From contig CAWVXU010000071.1 in NCBI GenBank assembly GCA_963934255.1, positions 1 to 13,646 of the forward strand: a stretch of 13,646 bases of DNA. Reading direction: 5' to 3'. Below, one piece after another: positions 219 through 13,646 of the stretch. The position numbers and the translations under genes are program-made. Below the pieces are notes generated by a model. That model ran no database searches, was not told where the DNA came from, and worked only from the letters and a program-made list of their open reading frames with translations. The stretch's first letter is position 1. Each line of letters starts with the position of its first letter. The stretch is from an uncultured Fibrobacterales bacterium. GTDB lineage: Bacteria; Fibrobacterota; Fibrobacteria; Fibrobacterales; CAWVXU01.

Positions 219-1001
219 TTAGTCTATTACAGGGAGTTTGCGCTGGCCTGTAATGAATTGTTTAACGTAAGGATTTTGTGTGTTGCGAATCTCATCAGGA
301 GTCCCATAATCAATGATATGGCCTTCATATAGCATAGCCATATGATCGGCTACTTTATAGGCTGAAGTCATATCATGAGTGACTACAACTGAAGTGACGC
401 CTAGTTTTTGCTGCATGTCTATAATCAGGTCATTAATGACATCAGCTGTAATAGGGTCAAGGCCAGTGGTCGGTTCATCATAGAGAATGACTTCTGGATT
501 TAAGGCAATGACTCGAGCAAGGGCAAGACGTTTGCGCATTCCACCTGAAAGTTCACTGGGCATTTTAGTCCTAAACTCAGGTTTGAGATGGATCATTTGA
601 AGTTTTTCGGTGACGATATCTTGAATCTCGTCTTCTTTCAGGGATTTGTCGTGCTCTCTAAGAGCGAATGCAATGTTTTCACCCGCATTCATTGAGTCAA
701 ATAATGCTCCATTTTGAAAAAGCATACCCATTTTTTTGCGAATTGTTTTGGTGTCAAAAAAGTCTGGCGTGGAGATGACTGTGCCATCAATAGAAACTTC
801 ACCAAAGTCAGGTTGAAGTAGCCCAATCATATGTTTCAGGATGACGGATTTGCCACCACCTGATTGTCCAATAATAACCATGGTTTCACCACGACGAATA
901 TTGAGTGTCACATCTTTTAAAACATCTTGTGGTCCAAAGGATTTCTTAAGATTTTTAAGACGGATCATTACGTCATTTGGATCAAATTTTACACCTGGCA
1001 T
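219..1001 (-). CDS. mlaF: MlaF/Mkl-family ABC transporter ATP-binding protein (phospholipid/MCE system)
   Basis: Walker A GQSGGGKS, MLFQNGALFDS, signature LSGGMRKR, Walker B ILYDEPTTGLDP, VTHD switch. GGAG RBS upstream. Directly follows mlaE. Confidence 0.93.
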   Translation of the reverse strand: MPGVKFDPNDVMIRLKNLKKSFGPQDVLKDVTLNIRRGETMVIIGQSGGGKSVILKHMIGLLQPDFGEVSIDGTVISTPDFFDTKTIRKKMGMLFQNGALFDSMNAGENIAFALREHDKSLKEDEIQDIVTEKLQMIHLKPEFRTKMPSELSGGMRKRLALARVIALNPEVILYDEPTTGLDPITADVINDLIIDMQQKLGVTSVVVTHDMTSAYKVADHMAMLYEGHIIDYGTPDEIRNTQNPYVKQFITGQRKLPVID

Positions 1002-1014
1002 AAAAGCTCCAACA

Positions 1015-1857
1015 CTAGCTAAAGAAAACGAGTGCGATTAAAAAGTCAAAAATAAGAATGAGTACACAGGCTGAAACAACAACCTTCATTGTAGCAACAC
1101 CGACACCACGAGCACCGGAACCAGCCGAGATACCATGATAATAACCCATCATGCAAATCGCTATACCAAAGACAAAAGATTTGACCAAGCCAGCGGCAAT
1201 ATCCATTGGTGAGAAAAAGTATTTGAGACCTGATATATAAGTGTAGGTAGTCAAGTCTAAAGCGAGAACACTCACAAATAGACCACCTAAAATGGCAAGG
1301 GCAATTGACATAATAGTCAAACAAGGCATCATCACCATAAAAGAAATAAGACGGGGCATAGCTAGATATCTAAGAGGATCAAGATCAAGAACAACCATGG
1401 CATCAAGCTCTTCTTTTTCTTTCATTGAGCCAATCTCGGCTGCCAATGAAGAGCCCACTCGACCAGCCATTACAAGCGCTGTGAGTACTGGCCCAAGTTC
1501 AATAACGACCATTTTACAAACGGCAGTGCCGATGAACTTATCTGGAACGAAATTTCGGAACTGATATTCAGCTTGGACAGCTGCTACCATGCCGGTAAAA
1601 ACAGAGGTGACCATCACAAGAGGAATAGAGCTAATCCCTACCGCAAACATTTGTTTGAGGGTGAGATCTTTGTTTTTAAATACGAGAGGGAAACGAGCTA
1701 AAGTTTGGAAGAATAGAATCATCACATCTGTGGCAGTCACAATGCCATTTTTGGCAATATTTAATAATGCAACAGGCGGCCCCAATAAAATTGTCAGGAC
1801 TGGATATTTGAATATGATGTTAAACAATAATATATTCCTTCCTAACAATTTTATCAA
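1015..1857 (-). CDS. mlaE: MlaE-family ABC transporter permease
   Basis: Motifs ELGPVLTALVMAGRVGSSLAAEIGSMK..EELDAM, DPLRYLAMPR and GARGVGVAT. Multiple hydrophobic helices. The TTG start overlaps the dnaB stop (TTGA); exact start uncertain. Confidence 0.93.
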   Translation of the reverse strand: MIKLLGRNILLFNIIFKYPVLTILLGPPVALLNIAKNGIVTATDVMILFFQTLARFPLVFKNKDLTLKQMFAVGISSIPLVMVTSVFTGMVAAVQAEYQFRNFVPDKFIGTAVCKMVVIELGPVLTALVMAGRVGSSLAAEIGSMKEKEELDAMVVLDLDPLRYLAMPRLISFMVMMPCLTIMSIALAILGGLFVSVLALDLTTYTYISGLKYFFSPMDIAAGLVKSFVFGIAICMMGYYHGISAGSGARGVGVATMKVVVSACVLILIFDFLIALVFFS

Positions 1858-3266
1858 TAACTGAACGAAGAGTCAACAGGTTCATCAGATCTATGGCTGA
1901 AATTAAAGAATCCGGCAAATTTCCCTTGAAAAGTAAGATTAATATCTGCAGTTGGCCCATTTCTATGTTTGGCAACTATCAACTCTGCTCCAGTAGGGTC
2001 TGCGTTTTTGTCATACATGATCTTGCGGTAAACAAACCAAACCATATCGGCATCTTGCTCGATTGCACCTGATTCACGCAAATCAGAAATCATCGGCTTA
2101 CCATCGCCTTGACGCTCTTCGACTTTACGAGAAAGTTGTGAAAGTGCAATTACCGGACATTTCAATTCTTTGGCGAGCTCCTTGAGGCCACGAGAGATTG
2201 TAGAAATTTGTACTTGACGAGATTCTCCAGGGCCATCCATGAGTTGTAAATAGTCAATAATAATGAGATCTAGACCTTGGCGTTTTTTAAGGGCACGACT
2301 TTTGGATTTAAGATCTGAAAGGGATAAAGATGCTGTATCATCAATAAAAATATTCGCTTCAGAAATTGGGCCGGCATTCATGATTACTTTGTTCATTTCG
2401 GCTTGTGGGAGCCGCCCTTGACGCAGAGCTGACATATCTACTTCAGAGCGAGTACAAAGTACCCTTTGCATGAGTTGTTCGCCAGGCATCTCTAAACTAA
2501 AAAAGACGACTGATTTACGAGCATCAATCGTACAATTACCAAGAAGGCTTAGTGCAAAGGCTGTTTTACCCATGGCAGGACGTCCAGCCAAAACAATCAA
2601 TTCTCCAGGCTTGAGTCCTGAAGTTAAAGTGTCAAGATCAGTAAATCCAGTAGGGGTGCCAGTGACTCCCCCTGAACTATATTGACCAATCATCTCCATT
2701 GTACGTGCCATCACAGTTTTGACGTGTTCTAGGTCGCCTTTTGTGTTATCATCGGAGATAGCATAAAGTTGTTGCTCGGCGTATGCCAAAGTTTCTTTAG
2801 GCTCTATAGATGGATCAAGTGAACGATTAGTGATGTTAGAGCAAGTGGCGATAAGTTCACGAAGGAGTGATTTGGATTTGACAATAGTTGCGTGATACGG
2901 AACGTGGGCACCTGATGAAACTTCGGTAGTGAGATCCCAAAGAAATTGTTGGTCTTGTATGAGGCCCCAGGCTTTTTTGTTTTTTTGTAGTTCTTCACCG
3001 ACAGTGATGACGTCAATGGGTCTGTTGTCATCAAAGAGTGAAATAATGGCTTCATAAACGAAACTGTGTTTATCTAGATAGAAGTCTTTAGGGACTAATT
3101 TGATGTCGCTAATTGCCGCGTCGATACTGGCGTTGTTTTGAAGCATTGCACCGAGTACAGCCTTTTCGGCATCAAGGGCTTGAGGCGGAAGTCGTCCACC
3201 TAGTAACTCCGGAGAAACGGTCTTTGACGTGATCTCTTGGGGGTTTTTGAAGTCTTTTTTACTCAT
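1854..3266 (-). CDS. dnaB: Replicative DNA helicase DnaB (470 aa, no intein)
   Basis: PPQALDAEKAVLGAML, Walker A GRPAMGKT, FSLEM, IDYLQL, LSQLSR, DLRESGAIEQDAD, KHRNGP. Start moved from 3323 to the ATG at 3266, which has a GAGG RBS at 3271-3274 and an ATGA overlap with the upstream stop. Confidence 0.97.
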   Translation of the reverse strand: MSKKDFKNPQEITSKTVSPELLGGRLPPQALDAEKAVLGAMLQNNASIDAAISDIKLVPKDFYLDKHSFVYEAIISLFDDNRPIDVITVGEELQKNKKAWGLIQDQQFLWDLTTEVSSGAHVPYHATIVKSKSLLRELIATCSNITNRSLDPSIEPKETLAYAEQQLYAISDDNTKGDLEHVKTVMARTMEMIGQYSSGGVTGTPTGFTDLDTLTSGLKPGELIVLAGRPAMGKTAFALSLLGNCTIDARKSVVFFSLEMPGEQLMQRVLCTRSEVDMSALRQGRLPQAEMNKVIMNAGPISEANIFIDDTASLSLSDLKSKSRALKKRQGLDLIIIDYLQLMDGPGESRQVQISTISRGLKELAKELKCPVIALSQLSRKVEERQGDGKPMISDLRESGAIEQDADMVWFVYRKIMYDKNADPTGAELIVAKHRNGPTADINLTFQGKFAGFFNFSHRSDEPVDSSFSY

Positions 3267-4204
3267 GATTCCTCTAAAATGGCTTTCAACGTTTGAAGTG
3301 TGGTCCAAGCGGGGCGCTTCCAACCTTCGTCATGTAACATCCAATGAAGTGGGTAAGTAGCCACCGTCGGGATGTTTAATAGTTTTAATTCAGTACTAAT
3401 TACTGCCTCTAAATTTCGCACATTGAGAGCTGTTTGAGCCAACTCCTCACTGAATATTAAGATTACTTTGGGTTGAACAAGTTCAATTTCTTTTTTAAGA
3501 ATCTCTAATAAGAAGATACGGTCTCTAGGCAGAAGTTTCTTGGCACTAAAGCTGTGATCTAAGAATGTCTGATAGCTTAAGTTTTTCTCAATCCCAATGG
3601 CTTTGAGCATTTTTTTTAGTAGATCACCTGGGGCACCGCTGAAAGGGTAACCTAGTTGGATGTCATCTGGGTAGGGTTGTAAATTGATAATCATTAGCTG
3701 TGGATTGATTGGTCCCTGACCTGCTAATAGGTTTACTTTCCCTATCTTAGGAGAATGTTGTTGTAAGTTTTTATACCAAGGATGTTCAAATAATAGGTGA
3801 TTAAATTCTTCAAGATTAGTTGCCGATTGAATTTTGGTATCATCTTCAAAGTTTGGCTTAACGGGCTTGGGTACTTTAATATCACCTAGACCTTTGCGCT
3901 TGGCGGACTCTTCCTGGTTTGAATTAAACTTATTCATGAATTTTTGATTGGCAGTCAAAGGTTTGATCTCTTGACTCGGATTGTTGGCCGGCTGAGGAGT
4001 TGGAGTAGGAGTATGGCCTGATGGTCTATTTACTTGAAGCCGACTGTGTTGATTTATTTGACTGAGCTGGCTTGATTGAGTTGAATGTGGAGGCTGAACA
4101 GATTCTTGTGCGGGCGCCACCCACGCCTCGTCAAATATCCAATGGTCATTACAGAGGATTTCCTCAGTTCTGAGGGCTTCTTTTATTTGATCTATTAAGC
4201 TCAC
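3263..4204 (-). CDS. Uracil-DNA glycosylase family-4-fold protein, apparently catalytically inactive, with N-terminal helix and P/Q/S/N-rich linker
   Basis: The C-terminal domain keeps the UDG-4 scaffold (GQGPINPQLMI, GYPFSGAPGDLLKKMLKAIGI, EIELVQPKVIL, PTVATY, KRPAW) but lacks GEAPG, NxxKCRP, HPS and the Fe-S cysteines. The GTG start overlaps the coaBC stop. Confidence 0.8.
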   Translation of the reverse strand: MSLIDQIKEALRTEEILCNDHWIFDEAWVAPAQESVQPPHSTQSSQLSQINQHSRLQVNRPSGHTPTPTPQPANNPSQEIKPLTANQKFMNKFNSNQEESAKRKGLGDIKVPKPVKPNFEDDTKIQSATNLEEFNHLLFEHPWYKNLQQHSPKIGKVNLLAGQGPINPQLMIINLQPYPDDIQLGYPFSGAPGDLLKKMLKAIGIEKNLSYQTFLDHSFSAKKLLPRDRIFLLEILKKEIELVQPKVILIFSEELAQTALNVRNLEAVISTELKLLNIPTVATYPLHWMLHDEGWKRPAWTTLQTLKAILEES

Positions 4205-5421
4205 GAGTGAACCTTGAAGAACTCAGAAACTTTTATGATGACTTGTTTAGCTAAGTCAGATTTACTTTGAATTTTGAGCTCTAGATTATCTTGTCCTTGA
4301 ACTAATATCCCACTGAGCACTTCTGTTTTACCAAATCCGCTGTCGGCTTGAACAGGGTTGTTAACAACGAGAAGAGGGCAGCCTTTTTTGTTGATTTTGG
4401 TAATTGCGTTTGCAATGACATTAGTCGTTTCTAAGGCAAATCCTACGATGTATTGATTTGAAGTTCCAAGTTTGGTGTATTTGGCTAAAAGATCATCGTT
4501 TGCGGTGAGCTTAATTTCGTTAAGGTCCCGGCTGGATTTAATTTTGTTACTTGAGATAGTACTTGGTCTATAATCAGCTACGGCGGCGGCTTGGATTAAT
4601 ACTTGAGACTCAGGGAAATTTTGTTTGAGTAAATTATCAAGATCTTTTGAACTTTTAAATCTGGTAGTGTTGATCCATGATGGGATTTCTTCATCAATTG
4701 GTCCACAAAGTAATTTGACTGGATATCCGGCTTGAAGGAATTCTTTAGCAAATGTCAGGGCAGTTTTACCTGAGCTTTTGTTAGATATATATCGGACAGG
4801 ATCAATGGCTTCCTCTGTGCGACCTGCTGTGATGAGGATATTCGGTTTGGGCGTATTGTTTGAATTTTGTAATTGATTGAGGTGCCACAAAATGACCTGG
4901 TCACGGATCTCATGAGGCTCTGGAAGTCTACCTGCTCCGACTTCACCACAAGCCAAAATCCCGTCATTTGAGTCTAATATCTGATGGCCATCGCTTTTGA
5001 GGGTTTGGATATTTCTTTGAACAGCCGGGCTCATGAGCATCACGGTATTCATTGAAGGACAAATCATCTTGGGAGCACTCGTGGCCATTGCCATCAGGGC
5101 GACCATATCCGGCGTAGTTCCGTTAGCGATATTAGCAAGAGTATTTGCAGTCGCAGGTGCAATGATCATCAGGTCTGCCCATCGAGATAAGTCAATGTGC
5201 TCGAACCAATCTTGAGATCTTGAAGAATTAAATATTTGAGTTGAGACAGTGTATCGTGAAAGAGCTTGGAATGTCTCTACACCCACCATTTGAGTCGCTG
5301 AATGAGTCATGGCGACTCGTACTTCAGCACCTTCTTTTTGAAGTAAGCGTAGTAACTCACAACTTTTATAAGTTGCAATTCCACCACTGACACCGAGTAA
5401 TATTTTTAAACCTTTAAGCAT
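4201..5421 (-). CDS. coaBC: Bifunctional phosphopantothenoylcysteine decarboxylase/phosphopantothenate-cysteine ligase (406 aa)
   Basis: GVSGGIATYK, HIDL, APATANT, PSMN, LACGEVGAGR, TAGRTEEAIDPVRYISNKSSGK, AAAVADY, VGFALET. Start moved to the ATG at 5421 (MLKGLKILLGV, a typical CoaBC N-terminus). Confidence 0.96.
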   Translation of the reverse strand: MLKGLKILLGVSGGIATYKSCELLRLLQKEGAEVRVAMTHSATQMVGVETFQALSRYTVSTQIFNSSRSQDWFEHIDLSRWADLMIIAPATANTLANIANGTTPDMVALMAMATSAPKMICPSMNTVMLMSPAVQRNIQTLKSDGHQILDSNDGILACGEVGAGRLPEPHEIRDQVILWHLNQLQNSNNTPKPNILITAGRTEEAIDPVRYISNKSSGKTALTFAKEFLQAGYPVKLLCGPIDEEIPSWINTTRFKSSKDLDNLLKQNFPESQVLIQAAAVADYRPSTISSNKIKSSRDLNEIKLTANDDLLAKYTKLGTSNQYIVGFALETTNVIANAITKINKKGCPLLVVNNPVQADSGFGKTEVLSGILVQGQDNLELKIQSKSDLAKQVIIKVSEFFKVHS

Positions 5422-5571
5422 GGCTACTAAAGTAGAAAATAGCACTCTTTTACGGCGAGTGGTTTTCAACATTGAGTGAACAATGTGATATAGATTAAAA
5501 ACTATAAGTTTATACGTGAGGCAATAAGCTAGGCTTTGTTAATAGGGGGTGAATAAAAAGGCCTTAAGAAT

Positions 5572-5632: not shown

Positions 5633-5663
5633 TTATACATCAATTATACATCAATTATGCATC
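5633..5663. repeat. 11-bp tandem repeat (about 2.8 copies) at the rpoZ stop
   Basis: TTATACATCAA TTATACATCAA TTATGCATC. The third copy contains the rpoZ stop codon. Confidence 0.8.
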
Positions 5664-6011
5664 CGTTTGGACTTCTGCTACAGGCTCTTCATCATCAATA
5701 AATGTCTCAATAGAAGGGAGTTCTTCAGCAACAGGTATTTCAACTATTTCAGTTTCAATCGAACTAATTAGTTCTTCTGCAGATTCGTCTGAAATCTCTT
5801 CAGATACTTCAGGAACAACTTCAAGACGCTCGTCCAGGAACTTACCCATGGCGATTGTCGTTGGTTTTTTGGTCAATTCAATAAAGCCCATGTTAGCTTG
5901 CTCGTTAATAAAACGTGCTTCTTCAGCCATCATTTTAACTGCTTTGAACATAGAACCATCACACTTCGAGTTAGCGTATACGTCGTCTAATGAAACTCTT
6001 GCTTTTGACAT
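5655..6011 (-). CDS. rpoZ: RNA polymerase omega subunit with acidic C-terminal extension
   Basis: SMFKAVKMMAEEARFI and KKPTTIAM match the omega patterns (sryeaVlvaakrARqi, KPtviAl). Conserved position upstream of coaBC. GAGG RBS at 6018-6021. Confidence 0.8.
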   Translation of the reverse strand: MSKARVSLDDVYANSKCDGSMFKAVKMMAEEARFINEQANMGFIELTKKPTTIAMGKFLDERLEVVPEVSEEISDESAEELISSIETEIVEIPVAEELPSIETFIDDEEPVAEVQTDA

Positions 6012-6024
6012 GTATTACCTCAGA

Positions 6025-6050
6025 AAAAATTAAAGGGGAAAAATTAAAGG
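6025..6050. repeat. 12-bp direct repeat AAAAATTAAAGG overlapping the tRNA 3' end
   Basis: Copies at 6025-6036 and 6039-6050. Confidence 0.6.
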
Positions 6051-6132
6051 AGAAGGCGGGATTCGAACCCGCGGTAGAATTAACTACACAGGCTTTCCAA
6101 GCTTGCGCCTTAAACCACTCGGCCACTTCTCC
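6048..6132 (-). tRNA. tRNA-Ser(GGA), CCA not encoded
   Basis: GGAGAAG/CTTCTCC acceptor stem, TGGCCGAGTGGTTTAAGGC D-arm, anticodon loop TTGGAAA, long variable arm GTAG-TTAATT-CTAC, T-arm GCGGG-TTCGAAT-CCCGC. Confidence 0.97.
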
Positions 6133-6279: not shown

Positions 6280-8121
6280 TTATTCAAATCCCAGATTGTT
6301 GAGTTTGACCAGTTGGGAATAGATTCCGTCTTCTTGCATGAGTTGCTCATGATTGCCTGACTCTCTTAGTTCACCGTGATGAAAAACGAGAATCATATCA
6401 GAATTAACAATAGTACTCAATCGGTGAGCTACGACGATAGAAGTACGTCCTTTCAGGACTTCTTCTAATGCTTCTTGGATAAGCTCTTCAGTATCTGTAT
6501 CTACAGAGCTAGTAGCCTCATCAAGTAACAAAAGCTGTGGATCTTGAGCAATCGCTCGAGCAAAACTAATGAGTTGACGTTGACCAGAGCTTAAGTTTGA
6601 ACCATTGTCCCTCAGTATAGTATCTAGACCATTAGGTAACTTTTGAATGAAAGTATCTGCTCTCACTTGTTTGAGTATTTCCCAAATTTTATCTTCTTCA
6701 ATAGTGGTATCTAATGCGATATTTGAACGAATGCTGTCAGAAAACAAGAAGACATCTTGAGAAACGTAAGCGAGTTTCGATTTGAGAGAATAGCGATCAA
6801 TATGGGCTAGCTCTTTACCATTGATAAGAATTTGTTCATCGTCAGCTCGGTAAAAGCGGTTTAATAGGTTCATTATTGTGGTTTTACCACTGCCGGTAGC
6901 CCCGACAATCGCAATTCTTTGACCTGAATTAATTTTGAAACTGATATTTTTAAGTATCGGATTAGTTTGTTCGTAGGCAAATTTCAAGTTTTTGATTTCA
7001 ATTTCAATTCCAGATTTTGATGTTTCACCAGAATTGACATCCAAGGTTCCATTGCGGTCTTCCGCATCTGTTTCCATGAGAGTAAAAACTCGTTCACCAG
7101 CGGCAATTGAGCTTTGAAGTTGAGTAATTTTATCAGAAATCTCCCGCAAAGGTCGTTGGAACATCGATGCGTACCAAGCAAAGGCCACGAGCGTGCCGAC
7201 TGAAGTAGATCCATCTATAATAAGATGAACACCCACAGCGTAAAGCGCTATAAGTGAAAAGTCCGTCAGACTGAAAAGGCCTGGGAAAAAAACAGAATAG
7301 TACCACACATTTTTGATATATGCTTCTTTGTAGCTTTCGTTGGTTTCATCAAAAAGGTCGGCTCTGTGTTTTTCTTTATTGAAAATCTGTACGAGATTGA
7401 TGCCATTGAGGTTTTCTTGTAAAATAGAATTGAGTGAAGCTAATTTTTCACGGATGATCCGATTGATGTTACGAACTTTTACTCTAAAAATAGCGGTGAT
7501 AATGACCATTGCAGGGAAAACTAGAGTAGTAGTAATAGCGAGCTGCCAATTTTTGATAAACATAAATACAATGGCAAATATGAGCATAAATACGCTCGAT
7601 AATAAATCTAAAAGACCTTCAGAAAATAAGCTATTGAGACTATCTACATCGTTAGTCATTCGCGTCATTAAACGACCTACAGGAGTTCTATGAAAAAACT
7701 CCATTTTCATTTTAGTGACTTTGTGAAATAAATCAACTCTTAGTTGATGAATGACATTAAATGCGAGTGTTTTAGAAAGGTAATTTGCCATGAACATCAA
7801 GGCCGCGTGGAGGAGAGTTATACCTAGGTAGATCCAAAGTATACTGACAATTTGACTAAATTCTCCACTAGGAATTGCTTCATCTATTATCTCTTCAAGT
7901 AGATGAGGGAAGACAAATGGAAGAGCTTGGCTAGATACCAATATGATGAATGTTACAATCCCCAGAAATTTGAATTTGTGGGCAATTTTTAAAATTTTCC
8001 AAAGTAATGGCAGATCGAGAAATTTCTGTTGTTGATCAGAAATTAGGTATTCTTTGACGGGATTCTTATCACTATTTGTTGGATCAGCATGGGTTTTGTC
8101 AGAATGAACTTTAGACATCAT
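6280..8121 (-). CDS. Type IV ABC exporter subunit (TMD+NBD), MdlB/YheH-like partner
   Basis: Six-TM N-domain, GRLMTRMTNDV, Walker A GATGSGKT, signature LSSGQ, Walker B LLLLDEAT, AHRLST. Start is 8121 or 8118 and overlaps the upstream stop. Confidence 0.93.
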   Translation of the reverse strand: MMSKVHSDKTHADPTNSDKNPVKEYLISDQQQKFLDLPLLWKILKIAHKFKFLGIVTFIILVSSQALPFVFPHLLEEIIDEAIPSGEFSQIVSILWIYLGITLLHAALMFMANYLSKTLAFNVIHQLRVDLFHKVTKMKMEFFHRTPVGRLMTRMTNDVDSLNSLFSEGLLDLLSSVFMLIFAIVFMFIKNWQLAITTTLVFPAMVIITAIFRVKVRNINRIIREKLASLNSILQENLNGINLVQIFNKEKHRADLFDETNESYKEAYIKNVWYYSVFFPGLFSLTDFSLIALYAVGVHLIIDGSTSVGTLVAFAWYASMFQRPLREISDKITQLQSSIAAGERVFTLMETDAEDRNGTLDVNSGETSKSGIEIEIKNLKFAYEQTNPILKNISFKINSGQRIAIVGATGSGKTTIMNLLNRFYRADDEQILINGKELAHIDRYSLKSKLAYVSQDVFLFSDSIRSNIALDTTIEEDKIWEILKQVRADTFIQKLPNGLDTILRDNGSNLSSGQRQLISFARAIAQDPQLLLLDEATSSVDTDTEELIQEALEEVLKGRTSIVVAHRLSTIVNSDMILVFHHGELRESGNHEQLMQEDGIYSQLVKLNNLGFE

Positions 8122-9889
8122 CTACCGCCAAATGAGTGGTAATTTGTTGTTTTTCCCAAGTGTTCCAATAGAGTCCTTGTAATGCAAGGAGCTGCTTATG
8201 GTTGCCTTGCTCTACAATTTTGCCTTCATCAAGTACGATGATATGATCTAGCTCGGAGACTGAAGAGTAACGATGTGAAATAACAATTGAAGTTAAATCC
8301 TTAATTTGACTCGTCAGATTTTTTAAAACTTGAGCTTCAGTCTCAGTATCAAGTGCGGATAAGGTATCATCAAGTATGAGTATTTCTTTATTGGCAATAA
8401 GCGCTCTGGAAAGTCCCACTCTTTGTTTTTGACCACCAGATAGGTTGATCCCTTTCTCTCCTAATCTAGCTTCAAGCCTATTCGGAATAGAGGGTAGATC
8501 TTTAGTGAAATCAGCAATTTCAACAGCTTGTTGGACTTCGGCATCTAGAGTAGGCGAGTCGGTGTTTTGCGAACCAAGAATGATGTTGTTATAAATAGAG
8601 TCACTAAATAAAAATCCGTCTTGGGGTGCAATCGAGAATAGTCTCTTATAGCTCAATTTATTAAAGCTAATAATGGGAGTTTGATTCAGCTTGACTTCAC
8701 CTTGACTAGAAGGATAAATACCAGCGATGACTTGTGAAAGTAATGTTTTACCTGAGCCAGTGGCGCCTACAATCCCTAGAGATTGCCCTCGTTTGATTGT
8801 CAGGTTTATTGAGTCCAAAACTTTCACTTCACTCAATGTGAGGCTCATGTCTTTTAATTCTAATTGATCAAACGTGTCATTAAAGTGCGCGCCATATTCA
8901 TACTCTTCTTGAGTTTGCATGGCATCTTCAAGCTCGATGATACGATCTAGTGAAGCTCGACCTCTCTGAGTCAGGCTAATGACCCAACCGAGTCCCACAA
9001 GAGGGAATTGAACTTTTACAAGATAAAGGATAGCAGCAGATAAATCGCCGATGGTCATCTCACCTTGTTGAACTAAATAAGATCCTAAAAGTAAAGATGC
9101 ACAGATACCTAATCCACTGACAACAGCAATAATAGGCCAAATAAATGAGTTAGTATAAGCGACTTTTTTAGATGTTTGTTTGAATTCTTCACTTCGTTCG
9201 GTAAATTTTTTGATAAAAAGAGGCTCTATGACATGAGCTTTAATGATTGAAATTCCTGAGATACTCTCATGTAAGAATGTATTGAGTTTGGCAAGAAACT
9301 TTTGATTAGTCGAATGAGTTTTGTACAAAAATTTGAGGAATTTCATCGAAATAAGTGGAAGTAGTAAGCTGAATCCGAGCCCTACAAGAGCAATTTTAGG
9401 AGAAATCAAATAAAGGCAAATACCTGTGTAGATAAGAAGTAGGCCCATGCGGGCAATGTGAAGTATAACTGGTCCTACTAAATCACGTACGTGATCAAGA
9501 TCATTTGTACTTCTTGACATAAGGTCACCAGTAGGGTTTTTATCAAAAAAATCACGGTTTTGAATTTGTAGTTTTTCAAATAAATTTTTACGTAAGCTGT
9601 ATTCAACTTTACGACTTGAAGTAATCAATAAATAACGTTGGAAAAAGAGTAAAATTGCAGCTAAAACACTGAGGCCTGCAAGTAGGTACAGATATTCGTA
9701 GACTTGAGATTGAACTTGGCCATCGAGCTGTTCGGATTGGGTAAGTAAATCTACGATGAGCTTGATGATCCAAGGCGATGCTTGGTCAAGAGCAGTCGAT
9801 ATCAACACGAAAAATAAAGAAAGACTTACCTGGAATTTGTAGGGCCTTAAATAAGGTCGTAAGTATTCAATTTGTCTTTTAAAATTCAC
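8111..9889 (-). CDS. Type IV ABC exporter subunit (TMD+NBD), MdlA/YheI-like
   Basis: TGDLMSRSTNDL, Walker A GATGSGKT, signature LSGGQKQR, degenerate Walker B ILILDD, SHR. GTG start. Confidence 0.93.
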   Translation of the reverse strand: MNFKRQIEYLRPYLRPYKFQVSLSLFFVLISTALDQASPWIIKLIVDLLTQSEQLDGQVQSQVYEYLYLLAGLSVLAAILLFFQRYLLITSSRKVEYSLRKNLFEKLQIQNRDFFDKNPTGDLMSRSTNDLDHVRDLVGPVILHIARMGLLLIYTGICLYLISPKIALVGLGFSLLLPLISMKFLKFLYKTHSTNQKFLAKLNTFLHESISGISIIKAHVIEPLFIKKFTERSEEFKQTSKKVAYTNSFIWPIIAVVSGLGICASLLLGSYLVQQGEMTIGDLSAAILYLVKVQFPLVGLGWVISLTQRGRASLDRIIELEDAMQTQEEYEYGAHFNDTFDQLELKDMSLTLSEVKVLDSINLTIKRGQSLGIVGATGSGKTLLSQVIAGIYPSSQGEVKLNQTPIISFNKLSYKRLFSIAPQDGFLFSDSIYNNIILGSQNTDSPTLDAEVQQAVEIADFTKDLPSIPNRLEARLGEKGINLSGGQKQRVGLSRALIANKEILILDDTLSALDTETEAQVLKNLTSQIKDLTSIVISHRYSSVSELDHIIVLDEGKIVEQGNHKQLLALQGLYWNTWEKQQITTHLAVDDV

Positions 9890-10190: not shown

Positions 10191-10315
10191 CTTAAAGATG
10201 AGCAAATATGATATAGTTTATCACACTTTACCCCAAGTTCTAGGTCAAATTTCCCTAACAACTCTCTTTGCTCAAGTATTGCTATTATTGTTTCATCAAT
10301 ATTTGGAGAGATTTT

Positions 10316-12016
10316 GTGGCTATTTTAATCGTTGTTGTTTCGTTTTTACTGTTTTATTTTGTCGGTTATCGTTTTTGGTCTAAGTTTTTGGCTGAAAAAG
10401 TGTTTAAGGTTTCCGAGAATGAGGTGACGCCTGCTCATACTCCAGGGCTAAGAGATGATGTTGACTGTTTACCAGTGGATAAACACATCTTGTGGGGGCA
10501 TCACTATACTTCTATTGCTGGGGCAGCTCCCATCATTGGTCCGGCAGTGGCTATTTATTGGGGATGGCTTCCGGCAATTATCTGGGTTGTCTTTGGCTCT
10601 ATATTTATGGGTTCTGTGCATGATTTTGGTTCGCTTCTAGTCTCTGCAAGGCATGGTGGCAAATCAATGGCCTCTATTGCGGGATCCGTGATTCACCCGC
10701 GTGCGCGTATTTTGTTTCAAGTTTTAATTTATTTTCTGATTTGGATCGTTCTGGCGGTTTTTTCTTTTGCTATCGGCGTTTTGTTTACCAAATACCCGGA
10801 GTCTGTGATTCCAGTGAATTTTGAGATTGTTATTGCCATGGTCATTGGGTATTTTATTTATAAAAAAAAGATCAAATTACTTATACCCTCTCTTATTGCT
10901 TTGGGACTTTTGTATGCCATGATCCCCGTGGGATTGGCTTATCCGGTCAACGTCGGGGGTTTAGGCTTCATGCCATCCTCTTTTGAGACTTGGGCTGTTA
11001 TTCTTCTCATTTATAGTGCTGTGGCCTCTGTGATGCCGGTTTGGCTTCTTTTACAGCCACGCGATTTTATTAATTCTCATCAGCTGATAGTTGGTCTAGC
11101 TCTCTTGGTTTTAGGTCTAATTTTCTTAAACCCGGAGATGTCAGCTCCTATGATTCGCGAATCTGTGGGATCTGCAGATGGTGGAGCTCCAGGCATTTTA
11201 CCTATGATTTTTGTCACTATTGCCTGTGGAGCAATTTCAGGCTTTCATGGTTTGGTGTCGAGTGGAACTACGTCTAAACAATTAAACAAAATGAAAGATG
11301 CTCGTCTGATAGGCTATGGAGCAATGCTAAGTGAGTCAGCCTTGGCTGTTTTGGCTACTGTTGCGGTAGGTGCTGGACTTTCGGATTGGGCGGGTCATTA
11401 TCATGATTGGAACGCTTCAGGAATTAATGCTATTGCTAACTTTGTTGAAGGTGGCGGTACCTTTTTGGAAGCACTATTCTTTAGCTCCAAAACAGCTCAA
11501 GTAATTATTGCAGTTTTGGCTATTTCTTTTGCTGCAACCTCCATGGACACTGCAGCTCGAATTCAGCGGATTATTGTCAGTGAATTTGGTGAAGCGGTGG
11601 GTATCTCTTTATTTAAAAACCGTTATTTAGCAACGGTTGTAGCCGTAGGTCCTGCAATCCCTTTAGTTTTAATGGGCAAGTCTGTTTGGGGGCCGTTGTG
11701 GATGTTATTTGGCACTACAAATCAGTTAGTTGCAGCTGTTATTTTACTTGTTTTATACGTCTATTTGGTGAAGTCCAGAAGGCCGGCTTGGCCGATTGGA
11801 ATACCGATGATTTTAATCGTAGTTATCACTTTAATTGCGATGATAACCAACATTTATACTTGGTATCATGATCTCACTTTAGGTGTCGGTGGAGCGACTT
11901 GGATGACTTTGATCCTAGCGGTGATACTGCTTTTATTAGAAGTTTGGTTACTTGTGGAGGCATGGGTAATCCTTCGGAATTTCTCTCAAGTGCGAAAGCG
12001 AGAAGTTAAATTTTAA
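10316..12016 (+). CDS. cstA: Carbon starvation protein A family peptide/pyruvate transporter (566 aa)
   Basis: TPAH, GHHYTSIAGAAPIIGP, PVWLLLQPRDFIN, FVTIACGAISGFHGLVSSGTTSKQL, LFGTTNQL. Start moved to the GTG at 10316, which has a GGAGAG RBS. Confidence 0.94.
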   Translation: MAILIVVVSFLLFYFVGYRFWSKFLAEKVFKVSENEVTPAHTPGLRDDVDCLPVDKHILWGHHYTSIAGAAPIIGPAVAIYWGWLPAIIWVVFGSIFMGSVHDFGSLLVSARHGGKSMASIAGSVIHPRARILFQVLIYFLIWIVLAVFSFAIGVLFTKYPESVIPVNFEIVIAMVIGYFIYKKKIKLLIPSLIALGLLYAMIPVGLAYPVNVGGLGFMPSSFETWAVILLIYSAVASVMPVWLLLQPRDFINSHQLIVGLALLVLGLIFLNPEMSAPMIRESVGSADGGAPGILPMIFVTIACGAISGFHGLVSSGTTSKQLNKMKDARLIGYGAMLSESALAVLATVAVGAGLSDWAGHYHDWNASGINAIANFVEGGGTFLEALFFSSKTAQVIIAVLAISFAATSMDTAARIQRIIVSEFGEAVGISLFKNRYLATVVAVGPAIPLVLMGKSVWGPLWMLFGTTNQLVAAVILLVLYVYLVKSRRPAWPIGIPMILIVVITLIAMITNIYTWYHDLTLGVGGATWMTLILAVILLLLEVWLLVEAWVILRNFSQVRKREVKF

Positions 12017-12375: not shown

Positions 12376-13646
12376 TTGAAATTCTTAATCCTTGTCACCT
12401 TATGCTTCATGTGCGTGAATATCTATGCTCAAACTGCTGGCCTGACTTTACCTCTCAACGGTAGGATTGCAAATACGGAAATTGGACTTAATGCCGAGAT
12501 CCAACTTCATGTGTCACTAAACGATGCAGCCGAAGGTGGCAAAGTTATTTGGAGTGAGACTCATACTACCACTTTGAATAATGGTTGGTTCAATGTTGAG
12601 CTTGGATCAAATGTCGAATTGCCCAGTGCGGCCAAGTTTACTGAGAACCTTTGGGTTTCTCTAGCGGTTAATTCTGAACCAGAAATTTTAAATCGTATAC
12701 CTCTCAGTATTGCAGCGAAGTCAATTATGGCTCACTCAGTCAATGGTCGAATTATCAAAGGAACTTCAATTGACAATGATGTGGTTGTCAAATCGTTTAA
12801 TGGTCTCAAAGATGATGTTATTTTTGAAGGTGATTCCAGTTTTGTTTTAAATGCCGAATCTAATACAATAAAGCTTTCACTTTCATCAAATGCTATTACG
12901 GCCGACAATATTTCTAAAGGGGCGGTTGTTCAGTCTAAAATTAAAGATGAAGCAGTCACAGAAGGGAAATTAAAAATTTCCAATAAAGGAAATGATAAAA
13001 CAGATGGGTACGTTCTAGCGTGGGATCAAAAAAACAATACTATGCGTTGGGTTCCTCTATCAGGTAAATTTTCTCAAGTTGGAGTGGACAGCCTCTCGAC
13101 TCCAGGGCATCTAGGAAACACAGGTGAAGAAGGTGTACTTCGTGTAGACTCATCTTTAACCTATACAAGCGGTGGGGACTTCATTACTTTTGGAATTGCT
13201 GATGACGCGATTAATAAAGATAAAATTAACGCGAATGTTGCCGGCCTTGGTTTAGGTCAAAATGCTGATGGTTCTTTAGAGGTCACCCCTGATGATTCTA
13301 CTTTAGAACTCAACGGTGATACTTTACGGTTAAAGGATTTTGGAATTGGTACTTCTAAGTTAAATGACCTAGCCGTGACTGCTGCTAAGCTTTCTGATGA
13401 TGCTGTGATGACATCTAAAATATTTGATAATGCTGTTACCAAAGAAAAAGTGAATTCCGATGTTGCTGGTCTTGGTCTTGCTAAAGATGTTGATGGTTCA
13501 CTTAGGGCGATTGTTGATGATTCGACTCTTGAAATTAATGTGGATACTCTACGGATTAAAGACTTGGCTGTTTCTAGTGAGAAGTTAGCATTCGATGCTG
13601 TTCGTAATATTAATTTAGCCGATAGCGCTGTTCAAACTGAGAATAT
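12376..13646 (+). CDS. Secreted phage-tail-fibre-like repeat protein/adhesin (partial, runs off the 3' edge)
   Basis: 423 open codons from TTG with no stop. Signal peptide MKFLILVTLCFMCVNIYA|Q. N-domain with NGRI..DAAEGGKVIWSETH..NGWFNVELG..LWVSLAV..RIPL. Then VVKSFNGLKDDV, GYVLAWD..MRW, and decapeptide AVTxxKLxDx repeats. Confidence 0.88.
   Translation, partial: MKFLILVTLCFMCVNIYAQTAGLTLPLNGRIANTEIGLNAEIQLHVSLNDAAEGGKVIWSETHTTTLNNGWFNVELGSNVELPSAAKFTENLWVSLAVNSEPEILNRIPLSIAAKSIMAHSVNGRIIKGTSIDNDVVVKSFNGLKDDVIFEGDSSFVLNAESNTIKLSLSSNAITADNISKGAVVQSKIKDEAVTEGKLKISNKGNDKTDGYVLAWDQKNNTMRWVPLSGKFSQVGVDSLSTPGHLGNTGEEGVLRVDSSLTYTSGGDFITFGIADDAINKDKINANVAGLGLGQNADGSLEVTPDDSTLELNGDTLRLKDFGIGTSKLNDLAVTAAKLSDDAVMTSKIFDNAVTKEKVNSDVAGLGLAKDVDGSLRAIVDDSTLEINVDTLRIKDLAVSSEKLAFDAVRNINLADSAVQTEN
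13201..13646 (+). repeat. 225-nt (75-aa) intragenic repeat, at least 2 diverged units
   Basis: Unit 1 from 13201: DDAINKDKINANVAGLGLGQNADGSLEVTPDDSTLELNGDTLRLKD. Unit 2 from 13426: DNAVTKEKVNSDVAGLGLAKDVDGSLRAIVDDSTLEINVDTLRIKD. Confidence 0.9.

Follow-up and report, generated by a model that had tools for sequence, protein, structure and literature searches.

We analysed a 13,646-nt stretch of DNA from an uncultured Fibrobacterales bacterium (contig CAWVXU010000071.1 of assembly GCA_963934255.1; the whole stretch is called the window below), in which a gene for a 313-aa protein lies between coaBC and the replicative helicase gene dnaB. Judging from its sequence, the protein is a descendant of uracil-DNA glycosylases belonging to family 4 (UDG4) that has lost most of the uracil-pocket residues together with the Fe-S cysteines. 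We read it as a psi-like accessory subunit of the DNA polymerase III (Pol III) clamp loader that works without chi, residues 1-30 being predicted to sit on the collar of three DnaX subunits, and give this reading a probability of roughly 55%. The dead glycosylase likely persists because its first 30 residues, as modelled, dock on the clamp loader. The new point is the argument for a psi-like protein beyond the Proteobacteria that is independent and does without chi. An earlier note on this DNA had already proposed a psi-like clamp-loader adaptor; this is still the best reading, with a weak complex prediction and comparative evidence on its side, but direct similarity to psi and a chi partner were not found.

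Degeneration of the uracil pocket in a retained UDG4 fold

PF03167 was the sole Pfam match of the 313-aa protein (45.9 bits, cut-off 24.3, E 7.6e-12), and no AAA+ or DciA domain was found in it. UDG family 4 (TIGR00758) was the best-matching glycosylase family with 46.2 bits, below its cut-off of 125.3, while UdgX (TIGR03914) reached 31.6 bits against a cut-off of 189.95. The AlphaFold2 model, built on 52 sequences, has a mean predicted local distance difference test score (pLDDT) of 82.5; aa 3-17 form a helix, the linker is poorly ordered (aa 31-110, block pLDDT 55-64) and the domain is predicted with confidence. The earlier note had described the linker as about 90 residues of low complexity; it is indeed P/Q/S/N-rich and poorly ordered, but over aa 31-120 its complexity is only mildly reduced (entropy 3.79 bits versus 4.01 bits in the domain), and its length ranges from 28 to 96 aa across 52 aligned orthologues. 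The fold comparison proposed in the note turned out as expected for UDG4, with a Foldseek match to 1UI0 (E 2.2e-12) and a Z of 20.2 to the T. maritima UDG4 1L9G; the top structural match was UdgX (6AIL, Z 21.1, root-mean-square deviation (rmsd) 2.5). For psi the outcome was less clear: the psi family PF03603 matched neither the protein nor anything in the genome of the window, and the E. coli psi chain 3SXU_B, aligned over 102 of its 102 residues, gave a borderline Z of 8.2 (rmsd 3.0). A search of the ESM Atlas with the whole protein returned clusters from Fibrobacterota only, and UDG, and a search with aa 1-40 returned no match above chance.

In T. thermophilus UDGa the uracil pocket is formed by E41, G42, E47, F54, N80 and H155 (PMC5387724). 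Aligned with 1UI0, the protein of the window has five of the six replaced (E41 by L175, G42 by Q176, E47 by D181, N80 by F214 and H155 by P285), and only the stacking Phe remains, as F188. The claim that the functional motifs are lost thus stands except for this residue, which had been overlooked. The replacement motifs are found where they were reported, NLQPY at aa 174, TFLDHSF at aa 213, with His at the Lys site of the KCRP motif, and TYPLH at aa 283, as is the N-terminal segment at aa 7. None of the four [4Fe-4S] cysteines is left, again in agreement with the note, and the sole Cys is residue 18.

Orthologues, locus history and maintenance of the gene

Searching with the single protein gave matches in 45 of 61 genomes, and a profile search of 30 selected genomes, among which 28 belong to the class of the window, found exactly one copy in each (28/28 of the class); the reading frame is intact in all 45 and all 30 matches. 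Identity of the orthologues to the query is low (19-47%), and coaBC and dnaB flank the gene in 27 of the 28 class loci. For comparison we used 20 loci from other classes of the phylum, 16 selected from the high PF03167 scorers so as to spread over families and four chosen as lower scorers. GEAPG is intact in the 16 high scorers and occurs in none of the 28 class orthologues; E41 is retained in 17/20 versus 2/28, N80 in 16/20 versus 1/28, H155 in 17/20 versus 11/28 and CxxC in 20/20 versus 1/28. The class moreover has its own Glu at position 239 (27/28), where all 20 other-class loci have Gln.

That the protein is still an enzyme, with an altered substrate or a very low glycosylase activity, appears very improbable from these counts. 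F54 is retained in the window's protein, H155 in the 11 relatives mentioned, and the fold is predicted with confidence to be intact, but no polar residue is conserved across the class in place of E41, N80 or H155, and in T. thermophilus UDGa a single change at one of these sites lowers k2/Km some 40- to 2500-fold (PMC5387724, Table 1), whereas five sites are changed here.

In the other-class sample coaBC adjoins UDG4 in 17 of the 20 loci, dnaB in 16 and both in 14, and the profile of the family matched that of the gamma-type UDG4s at 100%. By locus and sequence, the gene is an orthologue of the intact UDG4s. The start and stop of the gene overlap coaBC and dnaB by four bases each, as had been noted: the coaBC stop overlaps the start of the UDG-fold gene in GTGA, and the stop of the latter overlaps the ATG of dnaB at 3266 in ATGA. 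The dnaB overlap had been taken as a sign of repurposing, an argument that we reject, since intact UDG4s share the same coaBC-dnaB locus in other classes; the adjacency predates the inactivation and was inherited from an intact UDG4.

In a tree, a quick version with long branches, 29 degenerate class members lie on one side of a branch (Shimodaira-Hasegawa-like approximate likelihood ratio support 92), separated from the clade of Proteobacteria. In the other classes, the four partly degenerate copies are nested within the intact ones, a second, separate decay in progress. These copies (loci L055-L058, in genomes G079, G102, G126 and G107) occupy the same locus and retain the Fe-S cysteines; Ung is present in G102 and G126, and G079 gave no Ung match.

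Family-1 Ung was found in 72 of 73 genomes of the class versus 16 of 78 others. As kin are not independent, this association with inactivation amounts to one correlation, not many. The search for another UDG in the genome that the note had called for was successful, as the genome of the window encodes a family-1 Ung with intact motifs. This Ung (L001:1432-2172, G000:C26) ends in QMDLF, which we take to resemble a beta-clamp-binding motif; as a feature of the class such a tail was rejected, a similar hydrophobic tail being found in 1 of 20 relatives.

Selection was measured as the ratio of non-synonymous to synonymous substitution rates (dN/dS, Nei-Gojobori) in nine pairs of relatives; the window's gene, which has no close relative in the genomes, is not among them. 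The domain gave 0.04-0.15 in eight of the nine pairs; the ninth (L006/L016) gave 0.66 and is uninformative, as its dnaB gave 0.68. Values were 0.04-0.25 for the first 30 codons (eight pairs with a value, small counts) and 0.19-0.95 for the linker (seven pairs with a value). Together with the presence of the gene in all 28 class genomes, this bears out the proposal of a maintained pseudoenzyme, and the conclusion that the gene is maintained and not decaying is well supported by the comparisons. A relic in slow decay, kept in place by nothing but its overlaps with coaBC and dnaB, both essential, would fit the long tree branches and the low identity of the orthologues; with intact frames throughout and dN/dS far below 1 in both domain and peptide, this explanation is hardly tenable and already largely refuted.

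By mean column conservation, aa 1-30 come first (1.33) and the core domain second (1.06), and the value for the linker is negative. Purifying selection on the domain is as strong as that on the peptide, and the class orthologues retain the Lys of the KCRP motif (25/28), a C-terminal Lys (22/28) and a Trp (23/28), the latter two of which are kept in the window's protein. These findings would suit a protein acting mainly as a stand-alone, non-catalytic binder of abasic, uracil-containing or single-stranded DNA, for which any tether to the replisome is secondary; its nearest folds are UdgX and UDG4, and psi of Pseudomonas binds DNA through its long unstructured N-terminal region (PMC3197488). We nevertheless regard this as distinctly unlikely. 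Across the class the pocket positions are free to vary, an argument against a conserved site for lesion recognition; conservation is on average strongest in the N-terminal peptide and not in the domain; and the Lys site is occupied by His in the window's protein.

Predicted docking of the N-terminal motif on the clamp-loader collar

The N-terminal motif of the family comprises a helix with Leu, Gln/Glu and Leu-Gly, then a hydrophobic segment and Asp-Glu-Pro. In the window's protein it is divergent (Cys for Gly) but in register, and on a fixed-register family profile built without its clade its N-terminus ranked 1 of 2048 genome N-termini. The psi subunit of E. coli reportedly resembles MUG (Gulbis 2004), and a structure of the psi peptide on the collar, 3GLI, is said to have been described by Simonetta in 2009. 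We predicted a complex of aa 1-36 with three DnaX collars (residues 244-382) and the HolA and HolB collars, all from the genome of the window. The score was 0.58, while the best of three controls, one of which swapped out DnaX, reached 0.00; the runs share at least 62% of their contacts, with a partner pLDDT of at least 54. In the calibration, 116 of 157 solved pairs attained the mark, as did 2 of 215 mismatched ones, but the range at or below 0.60 holds only 18 of the 157 solved pairs and both mismatched ones. The prediction thus lends weak support to docking of aa 1-36 on the DnaX collar.

In the genome of the window (L033:2585-2601 and 2697-3167, G000:C18) dnaX ends at 390 aa, just past a run of nine A, and the -1 frame enters a downstream tau-like ORF. 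Runs of A9-A10 followed by a stop likewise occur in L059, L060 and L079, and not in L086 (four loci inspected), which points to production of gamma and tau by slippage or frameshifting.

Relation to psi

The comparative evidence for a psi-like role runs through the N-termini of UDG4. With hhalign, the N-terminal profile of the dead family matched other-class UDG4 N-termini at 94.7%, and psi matched gamma-type UDG4 N-termini (12 sequences) at 92.9%. On a mixed-phyla profile made from the N-termini of active UDG4s (87 of 118 kept, near kin of both psi and the family included), E. coli-type psi outscored every one of the 2048 background N-termini, and 36 of 52 family members came within the top 1%. 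By eye, all compared N-termini have in common their position, an amphipathic helix ending in Leu/Met-Gly and the hydrophobic segment that follows. Linking the UDG4/psi half of this chain to the UDG4/dead-family half is its weak step.

A number of results weigh against a psi-like subunit on the collar. Directly compared by hhalign, the family N-terminus matched psi at 0.13% and the whole profile at 0.2%, and the other-class UDG4 N-terminus matched psi at only 24%. A profile from 43 non-proteobacterial UDG4 loci recognised 32 of 52 family members and placed 0 of 43 psi in the top 1%, 41.5% of the background scoring as high. The psi alignment is shallow (sequences at least 63% identical to E. coli), which weakens both the direct family-psi comparisons and the scoring of psi by the non-proteobacterial profile. 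The window's own peptide is mid-background on the mixed-phyla profile (59% score as high) and ranks 37 of 2048 on a family hidden Markov model built without its clade. The Trp in the N-terminus, put forward in the note as a psi-like sign, does not serve as one, for most orthologues have V, I, L or Y in the column of W22. The Z of 8.2 to psi is close to the unremarkable level of the tool and far under the values for UDG4 and UdgX (Z 20-21), and the complex prediction passes in the weak band, may reflect memory of 3GLI and was made with one partner. Chi (PF04364) had no match in the 92%-complete genome of the window and was over cut-off in 0 of 121 genomes of the phylum; 15 weak matches in relatives (E 0.003-0.009) were rejected, the two loci inspected holding FtsY-like ORFs.

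A maintained adaptor whose N-terminal motif docks elsewhere, on DnaB, the sliding clamp or RNA polymerase, instead of the DnaX collar, would be in keeping with the lack of direct psi similarity, the collar being the sole partner modelled, and with the translational coupling to dnaB and the coaBC and dnaB flanks in 27 of 28 class loci. We think it unlikely, because the dnaB adjacency is common to intact UDG4s (16/20 other-class loci) and lacking in Proteobacteria, whose gene sits beside rimI, and because the collar complex passed its controls. A separate DciA gene is present in the genome, which also makes the DnaB loader suggested in the note less likely.

We compared the candidate psi-like subunit with known systems by their features. 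With the long-form UDG4s (TIGR00758, PF03167; 1UI0, 1L9G) it has in common the fold, the locus and the N-terminal motif of the intact other-class members, from which it differs by its pocket, its missing Fe-S cysteines and its TIGR00758 score below cut-off. UdgX (TIGR03914; 6AIL) resembles it as the top structural match, but the score is below cut-off and the window's protein is without the Fe-S cysteines. With E. coli psi (HolD; PF03603; 1EM8, 3SXU, 3GLI) it shares an N-terminal peptide, a flexible link and a non-catalytic UDG-like domain, and its peptide is, weakly, predicted on the DnaX collar, where psi binds: psi contacts domain III of all three tau subunits (Robinson et al., PMC3290774), at the centre of the collar (PMC11044049). 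Unlike E. coli psi, it has no direct profile match to that family, is about twice as long, comes from a phylum in which no chi was found, lies at the coaBC-dnaB locus and not by rimI, and was inactivated separately. By its definition, the HolD family does not include this protein, given the missing PF03603 match, the missing chi and the other locus. Similar in build are the long psi proteins of Pseudomonas (PMC3197488) and Acinetobacter, the latter similarly long and divergent (PMC11975115), with a long unstructured N-terminal region and a highly divergent sequence; these pair with chi, and the likeness is one of described features. Psi is listed for gamma-proteobacteria only, homologues elsewhere having perhaps diverged past detection (PMC3290774). 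A term search of a review of non-catalytic glycosylase domains found no mention of psi in the text available (PMC9266487), and full-text literature searches, with most subscription papers outside their scope, found no paper tying UDG4 to psi or the clamp loader.

UDG4 in Proteobacteria

Among the best 80 of 598 confirmed GTDB loci of UDG4, obtained with a query biased to the gamma-type, 37 were classed as proteobacterial by record title, and rimI adjoins UDG4 in 35 of these. The slot next to rimI is the position of holD in E. coli. PF03603 matched at the N-terminus of 7 of 13 hand-picked rimI-locus UDG4s, all below cut-off, and of five genomes with UDG4s of the rimI-locus type, none had psi over cut-off and four had chi.

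In transposon sequencing (Tn-seq) of R. sphaeroides, the 783-bp family-4 UDG gene RSP_1001 took 0 insertions (PMC5513736, supplements), and chi was essential by score as well. The DEG table in these supplements marks RSP_1001 homologues as essential for C. crescentus, R. palustris and B. thailandensis, and the main text, as far as available, leaves RSP_1001 unmentioned. Insertions are tolerated in the neighbouring RSP_1000 but not in RSP_1002, and polarity onto the latter is therefore possible (PMC5513736); this counts against use of the data for our reading, as does their origin from other phyla and from active enzymes. Supplement file 1 of an Azoarcus Tn-seq study lists holC and has no row named uracil-DNA glycosylase; with the rimI-neighbouring gene unmatched, this file is uninformative.

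Tentatively, we extend the psi-like reading beyond the window. The long-form UDG4s of many phyla may be clamp-loader subunits that couple uracil repair to the replisome through an ancient N-terminal peptide on the DnaX collar, and psi-like dead versions may have evolved out of these on more than one occasion, giving E. coli psi at the rimI locus of Proteobacteria and, independently, a form without chi at coaBC-dnaB in this class; the psi function would then not be a gamma-proteobacterial add-on. If docking on the collar is true, a psi-type partner of the clamp loader exists well beyond Proteobacteria, is workable without chi and derives from a repair enzyme with a tether to the replisome. This would also explain the essential scores of UDG4, a 'repair' gene, in several alpha- and beta-proteobacteria (PMC5513736).

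Proposed course of events

The ancestor at the coaBC-dnaB locus was a long UDG4 with intact motifs that carried the same N-terminal motif, as seen in the other classes. The class that lost the catalytic motifs carries family-1 Ung almost throughout, which would free UDG4 from its enzyme activity, a step resting on correlation. Peptide and folded domain have since been held by purifying selection, as the substitution rates show, while the linker drifted, and the peptide is weakly predicted to bind the DnaX collar. By analogy with E. coli psi, docking would stabilise the DnaX3-delta-delta' complex and aid clamp loading. [quoted passage not shown]

Neighbouring genes

The features of the locus are given in Table 1. 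The small ORF upstream of coaBC had no Pfam or NCBIfam family match; we presume from its position that it is probably a divergent RNA polymerase omega subunit.

Table 1. Features of the coaBC-dnaB locus in the window (aa, amino acids of the 313-aa protein; ORF, open reading frame)
Feature	Position	Strand	Basis and remarks
Degenerate family-4 UDG-fold gene, 313 aa, candidate psi-like subunit	3263..4204	(-)	ORF 4204->3263, GTG start; family matches, model
aa 1-30, conserved N-terminal motif (helix 3-17, hydrophobic strand-like segment, DE); predicted DnaX-collar docking peptide	4115..4204	(-)	Family conservation, modelled helix, weak complex prediction for aa 1-36
aa 31-118, P/Q/S/N-rich linker, variable and for the most part disordered, with a net charge of +6	3851..4114	(-)	Model, sequence, alignment
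aa 119-313, UDG-family-4 fold without Fe-S cysteines and without 5/6 uracil-pocket residues; purifying selection in relatives	3266..3850	(-)	
coaBC	4201..5472	(-)	TIGR00521 above cut-off; true start probably a few codons inside the ORF
dnaB, replicative helicase	1854..3266	(-)	TIGR00665 above cut-off; the ORF list lengthens dnaB to a TTG at 3323
Small ORF (probable omega subunit) upstream of coaBC	5655..6011	(-)	In other classes of the phylum, homologues likewise lie upstream of coaBC
mlaE-like permease (1015-1857) and ATP-binding cassette (ABC) ATPase (219-1001), downstream of dnaB, within the same conserved gene string	219..1857	(-)	

A tRNA-Ser(GGA) gene (6048-6132, minus strand) precedes the putative omega ORF. 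Further upstream, two neighbouring genes for fused ABC exporters, each with permease and ATPase, occupy 6280-9889 on the minus strand and probably form a heterodimeric exporter. The plus strand carries a CstA carbon-starvation transporter gene at 10268-12016 and, at 12376-13646, an open-ended ORF that leaves the window and has a signal-like start followed by repetitive, beta-rich sequence.

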